The notes below the pieces were generated by a model. The model saw only the letters and a list, made by a program, of their open reading frames with translations, did not search any database and was not told the origin of the DNA. A DNA stretch of 19,512 nt from a virus (Duplodnaviria; Heunggongvirae; Uroviricota; Caudoviricetes): the IMG/VR virus record IMGVR_UViG_2617270991_000004; one strand, given 5' to 3'. Both the position numbers and the translations under genes were made by a program. This document shows, piece after piece, positions 12,097 to 17,227 of the stretch; position 1 is the stretch's first letter; each line of letters opens with the position of its first letter.

Positions 12097-12299
12097 AACC
12101 TCACTCCCAGCGGACGACGGCGACGTCGGGTTGTCCCCTGTACCGACTCCGCATCATTGATCGCCCGGTTAAGCTCATCCAGAGAAGCCGCCGTATATTC
12201 AATTCTGCGACCATCTTTCTGGACAGACACCACCCGTTTACCGGTTAATAAATCAAGGCGCGCCTGACGCAGCGCCTGTAGTTCAGCGACTGTAACCAT
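12093..12299 (-). CDS. W: Head-tail connector protein W
   Basis: 68-aa ORF containing LTGKRVVSVQKDGRRIEYTAASL, matching recalled lambda gpW. ATGA overlap with B. Confidence 0.9.
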   Translation of the reverse strand: MVTVAELQALRQARLDLLTGKRVVSVQKDGRRIEYTAASLDELNRAINDAESVQGTTRRRRRPLGVRL

Positions 12300-14211
12300 T
12301 CACTCCTCCGGACAGCTTCGCTGCCAGTTCTTTAAGGGTTGGCCGGGTCGTCTCTTCTTCCCGGGATTTTGCCAGTACAGCCAGATCAAGCTGCCAGCGT
12401 TGCACGGACACACGTAATGCCGCATAGGCATACACCAGGCAGTCCAGCGCTTCGTTACGCCGCTTTTTGTTATCCCACAGCAGACGCATCTTTCCTTTTT
12501 CCCACTTCTCCACAAGCTCTTCCGCGACCAGTTGCTGCGCCTCTGTCTGCGAAAAAATCTCCGGATCATCAGGAAAACGGATGGCATACGACGTGGCTTC
12601 ATCCGCAGGCGTGGGATCGGCTTTCATACGGGCATAGAGAATTTCTTTTGCGGTGTCCGTCCCCACTTCACACAGATACACGCCCCGCTGATTGCGGGTT
12701 TTCGGCATGGTGATCACCGGCTTGCCATAGACAGATGCGCCTTTTACCGGCAGCACCCGGAAAACACCGTGTTTTTTTGACCTCTGATAGACAATTTCAC
12801 CATCGATCCCCCCGGTGTCCCAGCAGACACGGGAAATGGTCATTTCGGTTCCGTCTGCATGGCAGTATTTTTTGTTGATCGCCGCATCCACACGTAACAG
12901 CGTCTCTTCCTCATCGGGACGGCCCATAATGATGATTTTATCCACCAGAAAAGCTTCCTCTCCCGGTGCCCATCCCCAGACATACATCTCAAAACGGTTT
13001 CGCTGCGAGTCAATGCCCGCCGTCAGATAAACCACCCGGGCTGGCACCGCCGCCGTGTAATGCACGACCTTATCCATCAGTACCTGGTGATCGAGTTTTT
13101 CGCCCACGGCCTCTTCCCAGGTCTCGCCCAGCGTGGTGTTCACAAAGGTTTTCAGGCCGTTGGGATCTTTCAGTGCATCCAGCCAGTCATAGACTATCTG
13201 TACCCAGGTGGTGAACGGACTGTACGCCGTCCAGATATGGAACGTGATGGAGCGCGGCGGCGGAATTTCATTATCCGCGGCGCTGAAAAACGTCAGACCG
13301 TCACGGGTCCACATCCCCGTGTTTTCACAGATCCACCGCCCGTTGCTCTGGTCAAGCTCAGACTGATGGATCACGCAGCCATGATGTTCACAGAGGTAGA
13401 AAACGCTTTCGGGGCTGTCCTTCTCCCATTTAAGGCCAAAAGGCGTGGATTCATCGCCAAATTTCAGATACTGCTCCTCCCCACAGTGTGGGCAGGGCAC
13501 ATAAAAACGCATGAAATGCGCCGACTCGTTGGCCGCTTTTTCGATCTGGCAGGTGCCTTTGATTTTAGGCGTCGAGCCGCGAATGGATTTGGGCCATACA
13601 GAGCCCTCAATACGTTTATCCCCAAGCAGGGTTGGCGAACCCTCTTTTTCGACATCCGGTTCGAACGAGGAAAGTTCGTCATAGCAGACCACGTCCACGG
13701 ATTTTTCACGGTAGTTTTTAGCGGCAGCCCCGCCCAGGCACCAGAAGCCCACGCCCGATGAAAAACGTTTCAGCGTGAGGGTATTATCACGATGTTTACG
13801 CCCAAACCACGGTGCAAGATCGAGTAAAACCGGCACATCCCTGATCGTGGGTTCCACATGAGATTTCATAAAATCTTCAGCAGCAGAATCCGTGGGCTGG
13901 AAAAGAAGGCTGTTGCGTGATTTATGCTCAATAAAATAAGCCTCCACTCCCAGCAACATCTTTGTATAACCAACACGGGCAGATTTAATCAGATTAACAG
14001 TGCGGATCCGGTCATTCCCCATGCTGTTCATGATGGCAACCTGAAACGGCAGTGTTTCCCACCGCCCCGGGGTGTAAGATGACTCTTTCGGAAGGTAATA
14101 ATGTCGATCTGCCCACTGAACTGTCGTCAGAGGGACAGGAATTTTTAGCGCAAGGAGGCCGGTTGCTATCGCTCCTGCAGAATTAGCCGCCCTCAGTTCG
14201 TCTGAAATCAT
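12283..14211 (-). CDS. A: Terminase large subunit A
   Basis: Collinear with recalled lambda gpA ([78 protein letters not shown]). Start set at ATG 14211, which gives the lambda-like length of 642 aa; the track ORF extends to an upstream ATG at 14253. Confidence 0.92.
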
Positions 14212-14731
14212 CAATCCACCTGCGCACATTCTCACCGGCTTCAGAAGCCACATCGGATGCTTTCGCGATTTCAGTTTTCACAGCATCAAGATGTACGGGT
14301 GATATATCAGGGTATTTACGCTGCAGTGTCTGAGGGACACGGACAAGGATCCCTGATATATTCTGTGCCACTCGCTGAAAGATGTAGGTAAATAACTCCG
14401 TCTCGAGGACAAGGCCTTCCTCACGAGCATTTTTCAGCTCCTGTGCATCGGCCTGTGCCTTCGTCAGTCGGTAACGTTCGTAATCAATGGTGCCGGGCTG
14501 AAGGTCTGATTCGCTGGCAGCCCTCAAATCCTCGATCTCTTTACGGAGTTTTTCGTTTTCAATATCAGCTTCCCTCTGCGCATACCACTGAATGGCAGCA
14601 GTTGTATCAAAAACTGATTCAGTCCCTTTCCCTCCACCAGAAACTAGTGGTAACCCCTGACTCTGCCAGGCGGTGATGGTCCTGACATCAACGCCAAAAA
14701 TATCGGCCAGTTTTTTCTTATTGACGTTCAT
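14183..14731 (-). CDS. Nu1: Terminase small subunit Nu1
   Basis: 182-aa ORF starting [36 protein letters not shown], close to recalled lambda Nu1 (winged-HTH N-terminus). cosB lies immediately upstream and the 3' end overlaps the start of A. Confidence 0.93.
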
Positions 14732-14744
14732 ACACTCCCCCGGG

Positions 14745-14866
14745 AACCAGAAAGGATCTGAAAATGGCGTTTTCTAACAAAAACAGCCTTTGTCAGATCC
14801 TTTTATATTTTTAAAATTCTATTGATAATCAATCAGTTAAAAAGAAGAAGAACGGATCTGATTTTT
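14745..14866 (-). promoter_or_regulatory. cosB: three terminase-binding R elements plus an IHF site
   Basis: Three copies of the core CAGATCC(K)TTYT: cores at 14754-14760 and 14854-14860 in one orientation, 14794-14800 inverted, mirroring lambda R1/R2/R3. Exact match to IHF consensus WATCAANNNNTTR at 14827-14839 between the second and third. Confidence 0.75.
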
Positions 14867-14900
14867 CCCTAAAAATTTTCATAAATAGCGAAAACCCGCG

Positions 14901-14912
14901 AGGTCGCCGCCC
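14901..14912 (-). other. cosN: 12-nt cohesive-end sequence (GGGCGGCGACCT on the minus strand)
   Basis: Plus-strand AGGTCGCCGCCC at 14901-14912 is the reverse complement of the lambda 12-nt cos overhang. The flanking sequence also closely matches the recalled lambda left and right ends. Confidence 0.9.
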
Positions 14913-15118
14913 CGTAACCGGTCGGATCGCCGGAAAGGACCCACGAAATGATAATGATTATCATCTATATAAGGTTTATCACAACATGTGTGTACGCCAT
15001 CAAACCACGAGAAATAATCAATTATGACGCAGGTATCGTATTAATTGATCTGCGTCAAATTAACGTAAAAGCAACTTCAGATAATACAAATCAGCAACAC
15101 TGAATATGGGGAAACATT

Positions 15119-15304
15119 ATGTCATCAAAGAACAGAACCCGCAGAACAACAACCCGCAACATCCGATTTCCAAACCAGATGATTGAACAAATTAACATCG
15201 CTCTTGATCTGAAAGGTTCAGGAAACTTTTCAGCGTGGGTTATTGAAGCCTGCAGAAGAAGGCTGTCAACAGAGAGTTCGGGTATGAATTACATAATTAA
15301 GTAA
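15119..15304 (+). CDS. Small YlcI/YnfO-like protein (DUF3950-type, possibly DNA-binding)
   Basis: 61-aa plus-strand ORF MSSKNRTRRTTTRNIRFPNQMIEQINIALDLKGSGNFSAWVIEACRRRL... with a GGGGA SD. Resembles from memory the small YlcI-type proteins found next to terminase genes in E. coli cryptic prophages. Opposite in orientation to the late genes. Confidence 0.6.
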   Translation: MSSKNRTRRTTTRNIRFPNQMIEQINIALDLKGSGNFSAWVIEACRRRLSTESSGMNYIIK

Positions 15305-15436
15305 CATGGTGTTCACAGAACACGCAGTTACCGGACACATCAGTTTTCCATTCGCTCCCCGGCAGTACAGGCTTCCCCTCTGACGGGATAGCCTGAAAAA
15401 ATAACACAGAAAATTATTTGTTATAATTAATATAAC

Positions 15437-15577
15437 TTACTCAAAAAAAAGCGACGAGAAAATCAGCATCAACGAACAATAAGCGCCAATACGTGATAAC
15501 AAATGGCAGCCATATTTATCTGCAGTATAAGCAATGGACAGGATAACCACACCAGAAACCGTCAGCATAAAATCCAT
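15437..15577 (-). CDS. Hypothetical 46-aa hydrophobic peptide
   Basis: Hand translation of the minus strand gives MDFMLTVSGVVILSIAYTADKYGCHLLSRIGAYCSLMLIFSSLFFE, preceded by GGGGAAG 5 nt upstream of the ATG. Below the ORF-track size cut-off. Lies in the AT-rich gap where lambda carries bor. Confidence 0.25.
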   Translation of the reverse strand: MDFMLTVSGVVILSIAYTADKYGCHLLSRIGAYCSLMLIFSSLFFE

Positions 15578-15927
15578 TTGAACTTCCCCGGACAAAATCG
15601 ACTCATCTAAAGATTTACAGCTCTTTTTATTATCAATATGTTAAAAGTAAAATAAACAGATGTTCAATAACACGAATACAAAAACGTGCTGAAATTCAAT
15701 GAATCCATTTCTGTGTCATCAATTAATAGTGATAAACATCCGGCTTCTTCCACCATCGCACCGGACAGGCGACTATGAGGGGACAACGCCGCGCTCCGTT
15801 AACGCGGTAAACCCCGGTGTGTATCGTTTTTGATTATCCCCGCACACTCGCGCAGAGGAGTCTCCCTGTCGGGCTGCGGTCTCTGTTAATGCGGGGATAC
15901 GGCGACAATACCGCGCATCAGCAAAAC

Positions 15928-16395
15928 TTATTTCAGGCACTGAGTGCGGATATAGTCCTGTGCCCCTTCCAGTTGCTTCTGCATCGTCATCAGCCGCTCT
16001 CTGAGGGTGAAATAATCCCGTGTAACGGTGTCTGCCAGTTGGGGGCCGGTTGCATTATCCACGCGGGCGGTGCCGGTGGCTTCACGCACGGGACCTGGAC
16101 AGGTGGCGTTGATCCGCAGGCTGCGGTGACCAGCGGCAACGTCAGCGCGAAGAGTTTCATTTTCAGCTCTCGCATCGGCTAATTCCCTCGAGTATCTGGC
16201 ATCAAGTGCAGCAACATCACGCTGGCGCTGCTGCATATCAGTAATGGTTGCATTTGCCAGCTCCAGCTCACTGACTTTTTTATCGCGCTGCTCTTTGTAG
16301 GTTATGGCGTTATCACGGTAATGATTCAGCCCCAGACTAAGCGCACCACAGGCCACCAGCAGGGCAATGATGACCACGCACAGTACGCGGTTCAT
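15928..16395 (-). CDS. Rz: Spanin inner-membrane subunit Rz (i-spanin)
   Basis: 155-aa ORF with N-terminal TM segment and NHYRDNAITYK.QRDK, DMQ.RQRDVAALDA.Y..ELADA.AEN, RDYFTLRERL.TMQKQLEG, matching recalled lambda Rz. Confidence 0.93.
   Translation of the reverse strand: MNRVLCVVIIALLVACGALSLGLNHYRDNAITYKEQRDKKVSELELANATITDMQQRQRDVAALDARYSRELADARAENETLRADVAAGHRSLRINATCPGPVREATGTARVDNATGPQLADTVTRDYFTLRERLMTMQKQLEGAQDYIRTQCLK
15990..16175 (-). CDS. Rz1: Spanin outer-membrane lipoprotein Rz1 (o-spanin), embedded in Rz in another frame
   Basis: 61-aa ORF wholly inside Rz. Signal peptide plus lipobox (LVTAAC), proline-rich, CVKPP.PPAWIMQP.P.WQTPL.GIISPSE matches recalled lambda Rz1. Confidence 0.9.
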   Translation of the reverse strand: MRELKMKLFALTLPLVTAACGSTPPVQVPCVKPPAPPAWIMQPAPNWQTPLHGIISPSESG

Positions 16396-16396
16396 T

Positions 16397-16495
16397 TCAC
16401 CACCAGCGTATCTGACCGATGAAATAACCGGAGGCCATAATCACAAACACCAGCCAGATAAGAATGAACTTCCAGGTGGATAATTTTTCAGCCAT
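16397..16495 (-). CDS. Hypothetical 32-aa single-TM peptide immediately upstream of Rz
   Basis: Hand translation gives MAEKLSTWKFILIWLVFVIMASGYFIGQIRWW with stop TGA 1 nt before the Rz ATG and GGGAGA 8 nt upstream of its ATG. The frame is open for 71 codons; an upstream GTG would give 57 aa. Confidence 0.3.
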   Translation of the reverse strand: MAEKLSTWKFILIWLVFVIMASGYFIGQIRWW

Positions 16496-16570
16496 CACTC
16501 GAATCTCCCGAATCAGTTTGCTAAAATCAAACACACTTTCTCCTTTGACTTTTCCAGAGTCAGGAAACAC

Positions 16571-16693: not shown

Positions 16694-17227
16694 TTATCTG
16701 TCAATTCCCCAGCACGCCAGCGCACTTTCCTGGTCGCGACGGGATACCTGACCGTAACAGTTGTTTGAGCGAATACGGCAGTCTCTGCCACCGTCCTTAA
16801 TCCACCAGCGAATCGCCTCACACGCTCCCCTGCGATCACCTGCATTAATTCGTTTATAAAACGTCGACGGAAAACACTTACCGGGGCCAATGTTGTACGG
16901 ACAGAATGACGCGATCCCCGCTTTCTGGGGTTCACTCAATGGCACTTTGATGTTTTTCTCCACCCATGCCAGCGCCTTATCACGCTCAATGGCGTTAACC
17001 CGGTCGCATTTTCCCTTCGACAGCTTCATACCAGGAATAACAGGCTTACCATCCACCCGGGTGGCTCCACGGCAGATGGTCCAGATCCCCGCACCATCAC
17101 GGTATGCCGTGGTGTGGTTACCTTCTTTTTCGTCAAGAAACTGGTCGAGGATTTCAGGCGCAGACGCCCCTGCACCAATCAGCGCCAGAACGGCAGCCGA
17201 CAGGCCGTATCGGATTTTTACGTTCAT
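16694..17227 (-). CDS. R: SAR endolysin (T4-lysozyme-like muramidase, GH24) with N-terminal signal-arrest-release domain
   Basis: 177-aa ORF. Gly/Ala-rich weakly hydrophobic N-terminus (YGLSAAVLALIGAGASAP), then lysozyme-like motifs (EGNHTTAYRDGAGIWTICRG...CYGQVSRRDQESALACWG). Resembles recalled phage 21 R and E. coli Qin-type prophage lysozyme. Confidence 0.9.
   Translation of the reverse strand: MNVKIRYGLSAAVLALIGAGASAPEILDQFLDEKEGNHTTAYRDGAGIWTICRGATRVDGKPVIPGMKLSKGKCDRVNAIERDKALAWVEKNIKVPLSEPQKAGIASFCPYNIGPGKCFPSTFYKRINAGDRRGACEAIRWWIKDGGRDCRIRSNNCYGQVSRRDQESALACWGIDR

Follow-up and report, generated by a model that had tools for sequence, protein, structure and literature searches.

The closest described counterparts of the locus treated here are the right ends of phage lambda and of the K-12 prophage DLP12, where bor, p78 and p79 (lambda) or borD, ybcV, ybcW and ylcI (DLP12) lie between the spanin gene Rz and the packaging site cos. 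The same Rz-cos position is taken by a gap of 623 bp (15305-15927) in a lambda-like prophage with late genes on the minus strand, represented here by a window of 19,512 nucleotides (IMG/VR record IMGVR_UViG_2617270991_000004). A previous reading of this DNA, made from the sequence alone, had described the gap as an AT-rich region in the bor position with a 46-aa hydrophobic open reading frame (here ORF46) and a palindrome, and had considered a decayed cargo locus, a small toxic membrane peptide or a small RNA (sRNA) locus. The gap probably consists of two mosaic modules that are unrelated but adjoin each other where the lysis genes give way to the packaging genes: a conserved structured RNA module (module A), which includes the palindrome, and an AT-rich exchangeable cassette (module B), which includes ORF46. 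The palindrome and the ORF belong to different things, and the RNA fold is the part worth follow-up. Both lambda and DLP12 carry the same conserved module and, as in the window, have a ynfO/ylcI homologue adjoining cos, whereas the window lacks bor, ybcV and ybcW and has the AT-rich ORF46 cassette as its cargo.

Structured RNAs that are embedded in longer phage transcripts and have no promoter of their own include DicF, which is processed from the dicB operon of Qin, and the put RNAs of HK022. Module A may be likened to them by its embedding in a longer phage transcript; it differs from them by having no sequence or Rfam similarity to them and by its location in the late operon, at the lysis-packaging boundary. 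With the morons of lambdoid phages (Juhala et al., 2000, cited in PMC4104026) the cassette shares several traits: it is a discrete block, its composition deviates, some phages have it while others that are collinear elsewhere do not, and it lies at a site that tolerates insertions. The classic morons are autonomous transcription units, whereas for the cassette no convincing promoter or terminator was found. In the slot that the cassette takes in the window, on the cos side of the module where ynfO has its 3' end, prophages Sp12, Sp10 and Sp9 of O157:H7 strain Sakai have EcOnc10, EcOnc11 and EcOnc12 (PMC4104026), which are unrelated in sequence to the window cassette and whose RNAs lie on the ynfO strand.

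The division of the gap is visible in its base composition. The GC content is about 52% at 15305-15400, 26-42% from about 15400 to 15735 and 51-59% at 15700-15927 (51-60% over module A, 15737-15920), which indicates that the gap is not one unit; the earlier description as an AT-rich gap of 620 bp therefore holds for about 15400-15735 and fails elsewhere. When an 801-bp query (15200-16000) was searched against 5426 complete Escherichia coli genomes, 2162 were matched but the AT-rich part was covered in only 719, the remaining matches consisting of the GC-rich segment and the Rz end. In about 80 IMG/VR contigs, positions 15110-15918 (GC module, AT cassette and ynfO) form a single block between differing flanks. 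The two modules are delimited as follows:

15737-15920, minus strand (late-transcript sense): module A, conserved structured RNA module of about 184 nt, scoring 221 bits with covariance model R1.
15254-15736, no strand assigned: module B, AT-rich exchangeable cassette, reaching from the 3' edge of module A into the 3' end of ynfO.

To place the gap in the bor position is not quite exact. The lambda bor gene is flanked by Rz and the module, whereas in the window Rz abuts the module directly, with the Rz stop at 15928 and module A beginning at 15920, that is, 8 nt past the stop codon; there is no bor, and nothing fills its place between Rz and module A. The following slot, which holds p78/p79 in lambda and ybcV/ybcW in DLP12, is taken by the AT-rich cassette.

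Module A has sharp ends in the alignments, beyond which the flanks of different phages are unrelated. Covariance model R1 was built from an alignment (A6) of 92 distinct copies, and RNAalifold applied to the same alignment gave 37 pairs in five helices, ten of these pairs with compensatory changes on both sides. The helices, written in the late-transcript sense, are:

15911-15905 with 15827-15821, minus strand: helix P1, GUAUUGU paired with ACGAUAC, 7 pairs with 99.4% of cells paired, enclosing P2 and P3.
15899-15885 with 15847-15835, minus strand: helix P2, the palindrome, UAUCCCCGCAUUAAC paired with GUGUGCGGGGAUA, 12 pairs with 99.5% of cells paired.
15878-15874 with 15855-15851, minus strand: helix P3, CGCAG paired with CUGCG, 5 pairs with 99.1% of cells paired.
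15815-15813 with 15781-15779, minus strand: variable P4 region, GGG paired with CCC, surrounding the hairpin CCGCG/CGCGG.
15766-15760 with 15744-15738, minus strand: helix P5, GUCCGGU paired with GCCGGAU, 7 pairs, 5 of them changed on both sides.

In a pair-count test on A6, 98.7% of 3390 cells were paired and changes on both sides were counted in 10 pairs (50 cells). None of 500 column shuffles attained the observed value on any of five measures, and sliding the 3' partners by 1-3 columns lowered pairing to 33-63%, with at most 5 pairs changed on both sides. Examples of the counts are UA:51, UG:36 and CG:4 at pair 11/100 of P1; UG:50, UA:36 and CG:6 at pair 25/84 and CG:81, UG:5, UA:2 and AU:2 at pair 26/83 of P2; CG:53 and UG:37 at pair 45/69 of P3; and GC:56, UA:21 and GU:10 at pair 165/187 of P5. 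The wobble pairs are strongly asymmetric, with 459 G.U cells against 15 A.C cells, and pairing reaches 98.7% in the minus (late-transcript) sense compared to 85.6% in the opposite sense. The excess of G.U over A.C means that the structure holds only in late-sense RNA, and this strand asymmetry excludes a constraint on double-stranded DNA as its source. The comparison of homologues thus shows module A to be a strand-specific conserved RNA structure.

The palindrome had been noticed in the sequence-only reading as a 9-bp inverted repeat with arms about 46 bp apart. The repeat is real and perfect, but it is 10 bp long and its arms (TATCCCCGCA at 15835-15844 and TGCGGGGATA at 15890-15899) are separated by 45 nt. 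By our own estimate about 0.05 perfect 10-bp repeats at such spacing are expected by chance in 623 bp; the repeat is taken as real because it is conserved and covarying. Both P1 and P2 also appear in the single-sequence minimum free energy (MFE) fold. P3 caps a small variable hairpin, CCC-GACA-GGG, which some Shiga toxin (Stx) 2a phages have lost by a 10-nt deletion. P4 is the least conserved part and is shorter in lambda and DLP12; its hairpin is swapped for CUCAU/AUGGG in Stx2 II, for CAGC/GCUG in Salmonella phage ES18 and for CUGUG/CGCAG elsewhere, and the loop of P5 holds the near-invariant GGUGGAAGAA. Indels of 1 nt and 10 nt among the homologues, together with the ORFs annotated over the module in different phage records, which have differing frames and ends and are mutually inconsistent, indicate that the module is not protein-coding. 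One prophage copy (IMGVR_UViG_2880412407_000003, 1451-2714) has its module interrupted by some 1.26 kb of inserted DNA, apparently with a duplication of 3 bp, at a point corresponding to 15861-15863 of the window in the P3 region; the size and duplication of this insert fit an IS3-family element.

Several other functions were considered for individual motifs and rejected. The palindrome does not suit an intrinsic terminator, as its arms are 45 nt apart, no U-tract follows and the terminator scan was empty there. Inspection by eye also dismissed GATGGTGG in the P5 loop as a Chi site (GCTGGTGG), GGUGGAAGAAGCC as a boxB hairpin and AATCAAAAACGAT as a site for integration host factor, whose consensus it does not fit.

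Taken by itself, the GC segment has matches in about 400 phage records, with identities of 97-76% and nearly always in DNA without annotation; the records include Stx1, Stx2a and Stx2c phages, the lambda-like 2B8, IdasGreatGrand and ES18. Model R1 recovers a copy in phage lambda at 46865-47034, in the bor-lambdap78 interval (110 bits), with two further compensatory pairs in P2; another in DLP12 at K-12 579006-579176, in the borD-ybcV interval (117 bits); and a third in Sp12 of strain Sakai (212 bits). Among species-representative contigs, the module pattern gave only 5 matches (two Escherichia, two metagenome-assembled genomes and one non-enteric contig of 468 bp). Rfam 15 contains no relevant match at E<=10 for the window copy or at E<=1 for the lambda, ES18 and Stx2 II copies, literature searches found no description of the module, and a paper on gene essentiality in lambda by CRISPR interference (CRISPRi) is silent on it.

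In all 156 distinct contexts the module has the orientation of Rz, lysozyme and the small and large terminase genes (terS and terL); Rz always precedes it, at a distance of 0 to about 1740 nt, and the terminase always follows. Its upstream neighbour is Rz itself in the window, and a 74-aa ORF, bor, rha or ant in other phages. Downstream, at least 20 junction types were found among 158 loci: some phages have cosN after only 64-87 nt, and elsewhere the next element is ynfO, the ORF46 cassette, the Sp12 segment or terS. The late regions associated with the module include those with lambda-type cos terminases, those with HNH/P27-type terminases, the Stx2 II/933W-type region (the packaging genes being unnamed in that record) and ES18. 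The latter is a headful packager.

A scan found no conserved promoter before the module and no terminator after it. With the constant late orientation, the lack of an own promoter makes the module most likely a part of the Q-dependent late transcript; from this orientation we infer late-sense transcription, and the module would be made within that transcript, act as folded RNA and presumably do so in cis. The mechanism that we prefer, with low confidence, is that of an RNA processing or stability element: P1 and P2 could stack coaxially to about 19 bp with internal loops, which gives a likeness to RNase III-type substrates, and the stack might be either a site of RNase III/E type or a fold that protects the RNA. 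Such an element would separate the lysis mRNA from the head-gene mRNA or release a stable RNA fragment. A processed regulatory RNA or a protein-binding RNA is equally open. On this basis we propose tentatively, at rather less than an even chance, that module A, including the lambda copy, is a functional RNA not described before in lambdoid phages: as a folded part of the late transcript it would either give rise, by processing, to a stable regulatory RNA or be the binding partner of a factor from the phage or the host, and it would control the fate of late mRNA or the hand-over of expression from lysis to packaging.

Some results weigh against this proposal and against the fold itself. The folding energy of the module is unremarkable compared to shuffled sequences (z = -0.8, or more exactly -0.79, for the module alone and -1.4, or -1.40, with flanks), and the 3' half of the single-sequence MFE structure departs from the consensus. 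The sequences of A6 come from closely related, recombining phages, and the pair statistics ignore phylogeny. In the Hfq cross-linking (CRAC) data for enterohaemorrhagic E. coli (EHEC), no peak is listed on the Sp12 copy (Tree et al., 2014, Table S2; PMC4104026); its absence fits late-only expression, yet it is not positive evidence for it. Finally, in the lambda-like phage HK630 a leftward promoter (TGGACA-15-TACAAT, at 718-744 of the HK630 segment, equivalent to about 46882-46908 of lambda) is annotated on the opposite strand inside the module. With such a promoter in lambda-type copies, some of their conservation may reflect a constraint on the DNA.

That the module is an independent sRNA gene with expression in lysogens is unlikely on these data. 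The module is a self-contained mosaic unit of sRNA-like size and EHEC prophages are rich in sRNAs (PMC4104026), but the upstream flanks vary between phages, so that no promoter is conserved, the module has no terminator, and no orphan Hfq peak is listed for the Sp12 copy. The earlier suggestion of an sRNA locus survives in so far as the palindrome does belong to a structured RNA that is conserved; what the data favour is a domain of the polycistronic late transcript rather than a stand-alone sRNA gene. EcOnc15 of Sp15 was also considered as a candidate at the module and was rejected, being located between Q and stx1A.

Slightly less probable still is that the palindrome, or the module as a whole, is a DNA-level element, either a promoter or operator such as Pbor or a protein-binding site near cos. 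The promoter annotated in HK630, which is presumably Pbor, would speak for this, as do the 64-87 nt that separate the module from cosN in some phages and the unremarkable folding energy. However, the promoter hexamers are common to the bor-carrying lambda, DLP12 and Stx2 II and are absent from the bor-less copies, including that of the window, so the bor promoter seems to be superimposed on the strand antisense to the RNA. The module is found with differing terminase types and with ES18, the compensatory changes keep pairing and not sequence, and the ratio of G.U to A.C cells is not explicable by a constraint on duplex DNA.

If the late-transcript RNA proposed here is confirmed, it would add a new RNA component to the best-studied phage. 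No Rfam family covers this covariation-supported, strand-specific fold, which lies in the late operon of lambda, of DLP12 and of about 40% of complete E. coli genomes and is apparently undescribed, in spite of lambda and the Shiga-toxin phages being among the most studied genetic systems. Should the module control the processing or stability of late mRNA, it would bear on lysis timing and burst size and, in Stx phages, on the late transcription unit, to which the toxin genes also belong. The map of cargo at the right end of lambdoid genomes is refined as well: one slot, between Rz and the module, receives bor, rha or ant, and a second, between the module and cos, receives ybcV/ybcW, ynfO, EcOnc10 or the ORF46 cassette.

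The AT-rich cassette would be cargo in the slot between module A and ynfO/cos. Its part at 15305-15735 occurs in 734 of the 5426 complete E. coli genomes, in 733 of them at 95-100% identity and in the remaining one, strain SHP24, as an allele of 77% identity. Strains with the cassette include O104:H4 2009EL-2071 and O157:H7 strain 1130. The cassette was not found in strain Sakai, whose Sp12 has an alternative one: it retains the GC module and, from the 5' side, three-quarters of ynfO, but has 266 bp of unrelated DNA in place of 15254-15738. A GC content of 26-42%, compared to 50-60% in the flanks, and the replacement in Sp12 with sharp junctions are as expected of a moron; as for transcription signals of its own, nothing was seen beyond a minus-strand GATAAT whose -35 hexamer is poor and a single weak hairpin of terminator type (15323-15309). 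The homology of the window ynfO to the Sp12, DLP12 and Qin genes ends at about 15253, and its last 17 codons fall in the cassette; these C-terminal residues are exchanged along with the cassette, which places recombination junctions inside the gene. Two repeat pairs (15401-15412/15708-15719 and 15417-15431/15722-15736) were inspected as possible ends of a miniature inverted-repeat transposable element (MITE), but they are not collinear and were treated as chance. The features of the cassette are:

15437-15577, minus strand: ORF46, 46-aa hydrophobic ORF, annotated by PGAP as a hypothetical protein (RefSeq WP_000347013.1).
15583-15589, minus strand: Shine-Dalgarno (SD)-like GGGGAAG upstream of the ORF46 ATG.
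15612-15668, no strand assigned: best-conserved non-coding block, 93% identical between alleles compared to 77% for the whole cassette.
15614-15642, plus strand: promoter-like site TTTACA-17-TATGTT from the promoter scan, of putative function; putative plus-strand start near 15649.
15634-15629, minus strand: GATAAT with a poor -35 hexamer; putative minus-strand start near 15622.

ORF46 was found as described earlier, with an ATG start, exactly the peptide given and the SD-like sequence 8 nt upstream; likewise, no ORF of at least 60 aa lies wholly inside 15305-15927. A 121-aa ORF with a GTG start (15817-16182, plus strand) begins in the gap and continues antisense through Rz.

The probability that ORF46 is a real small membrane peptide is roughly that of a coin toss, and that it is a two-helix membrane peptide translated from late-operon read-through has about an even chance or a shade better. 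AlphaFold2, run on the single ORF46 sequence, gave helices at residues 2-22 and 24-45 with a confidence score (pLDDT) of 76, and the product is a predicted candidate for a membrane peptide forming a two-helix hairpin. The 77% allele (82% inside the ORF) encodes an intact 45-aa orthologue (WP_000523825.1), in which GGGGAA and the ATG are kept though the intervening bases differ, and there is no indel over 135 nt whereas the flanks have indels. The ratio of nonsynonymous to synonymous substitution rates (dN/dS) is 0.31 in the ORF46 frame compared to 0.59-0.74 in the shifted frames, with p of about 0.05 by randomisation, from a single diverged pair. Within the main clade, 4 synonymous changes, 1 missense change and 1 change from ATG to GTG were counted. 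ORF46 ends in a T8/T9 homopolymer (15444-15451, minus strand) whose length varies between genomes, and either length leads to a stop within two codons (46 or 45 aa), displacing the end by just one codon. In one genome copy the stop codon of ORF46 is lost.

The alternative that ORF46 is spurious and the cassette non-coding, either a regulatory or sRNA region linked to ynfO (a 3' untranslated region or an antisense unit) or AT-rich filler of the H-NS type, keeps a considerable probability, somewhat below even. Several results speak against a coding ORF and hence for this alternative: an ORF of at least 46 codons arises in 43% of dinucleotide shuffles of the AT-rich core; no sigma-70 promoter passed the scan on the ORF46 strand, with just one weak terminator-like hairpin 3' of the ORF; frameshifted variants are on record (P0008, P0010); T-rich DNA yields hydrophobic ORFs by composition alone (PMC11188072); and the best-conserved stretch of the cassette, which carries the plus-strand promoter-like site, is non-coding. 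At the observed number of substitutions the frame would be open by chance in 51% of cases. The 90% nucleotide conservation over the 3' half of the ORF could reflect a constraint at the RNA level, and the alternative Sp12 cassette bears, at the 3' end of ynfO, the very strong Hfq site EcOnc10. Against a spurious ORF stand the difference in dN/dS between the true and the shifted frames, the excess of synonymous over missense changes in the main clade, the retention of SD and ATG without indels in the 77% allele and the one-codon effect of the T8/T9 change.

EcOnc10 itself is carried by the replacement DNA of Sp12 (Sakai 2234239-2234287, plus strand), where the ynfO homologue has its 3' end, and a clean terminator on the plus strand, CTGCTGTG..CACGGCAG-T7, comes after it. 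It is among the strongest orphan Hfq-CRAC peaks in EHEC, with an area under the curve of 33.6 million, and Table S2 of the same work lists neither a Northern blot nor a function for it (Tree et al., 2014; PMC4104026). EcOnc11 in Sp10 and EcOnc12 in Sp9 are apparently the same element.

ORF46 is an orphan. No family match was found in Pfam, PHROGs, NCBIfam or PADLOC, and word-index and exhaustive HMMER searches recovered its own E. coli family and, beyond that, nothing but repetitive false positives, while back-translated ORF46 patterns gave no relative in 185,579 species-representative genomes. Literature searches on WP_000347013, on ynfO with small protein and on borD/ybcV with sRNA found nothing, and DUF3950 has only a passing mention. 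The supplements of small-gene ribosome profiling (Ribo-seq) in Sakai contain no ORF46 peptide or DNA; the cassette was not found in that strain, so these data are unusable for the ORF. ORF46 is a minor addition, a candidate small membrane protein that already has an annotation.

The toxic membrane peptide of the sequence-only reading is possible but unproven. Known type I toxins of E. coli usually have a single transmembrane helix. Like Hok, Ldr, TisB, Ibs, ShoB, Zor and DinQ, ORF46 is small, hydrophobic and prophage-encoded, with possible antisense transcription; unlike them, it has no family match and no defined antitoxin RNA, and two helices are predicted. The specific form of this idea, a type I toxin curbed by an antisense or divergent sRNA from the upstream conserved block, is rather improbable. 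The small hydrophobic peptide, the divergent plus-strand promoter-like site at 15614-15642 and the convergent ynfO transcript, which would be antisense to ORF46, would suit it, but none of the four databases above holds a matching toxin family, there is no Rfam match, the scan revealed no sRNA terminator or defined antisense unit, and the number of predicted helices is not the usual one. The weakest alternative, a decayed bor-type cargo locus, has the location after Rz, reminiscent of lambda and DLP12, in its favour and is very improbable, already refuted as far as sequence analysis reaches: tblastn with lambda Bor, p78 and p79 and K-12 YbcV and YbcW against 14700-16000 gave no significant match, ORF46 has no lipobox, Rz abuts the module directly, and both modules are intact units, conserved in hundreds of genomes.

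The remaining features of the locus are:

16694-17227: lysozyme, a late gene.
15928-16395, minus strand: Rz (i-spanin), the late-operon neighbour upstream of the gap (Pfam Phage_lysis 6e-48, PHROG 13).
15990-16175, minus strand: Rz1 (o-spanin), in the +1 frame inside Rz, with lipobox LVTAAC.
15119-15304, plus strand: ynfO/ylcI homologue (DUF3950, ribbon-helix-helix-like; Pfam PF13132 9e-19, PHROG 949, NCBIfam NF041551).
About 14899-14911, minus strand: lambda-type cosN (GGGCGGCGACCTCG), read straight from the sequence.
14183-14731: terminase small subunit.
12283-14253: terminase large subunit.

The cos site (14899-14950) comprises the cosN 12-mer GGGCGGCGACCT and a cosQ-side sequence similar to the right end of lambda. 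It lies about 210 bp away from ynfO, and its position makes the module, the cassette and ynfO the extreme right end of the packaged genome. The ynfO homologue is convergent with ORF46; YnfO/YlcI has the look of a ribbon-helix-helix DNA-binding protein and a weak PHROG match to HicB-like antitoxins (E 0.012). Matching RefSeq records of this prophage type have no Rz1 annotation. A small hydrophobic ORF, MAEKLSTWKFILIWLVFVIMASGYFIGQIRWW (16397-16495, minus strand), lies within a GTG-initiated ORF (16397-16570) in the 298 bp, otherwise without annotation, that separate lysozyme from Rz, and ends 1 nt before the Rz start; in related phages, short hypothetical ORFs or an antirepressor are annotated at this position.

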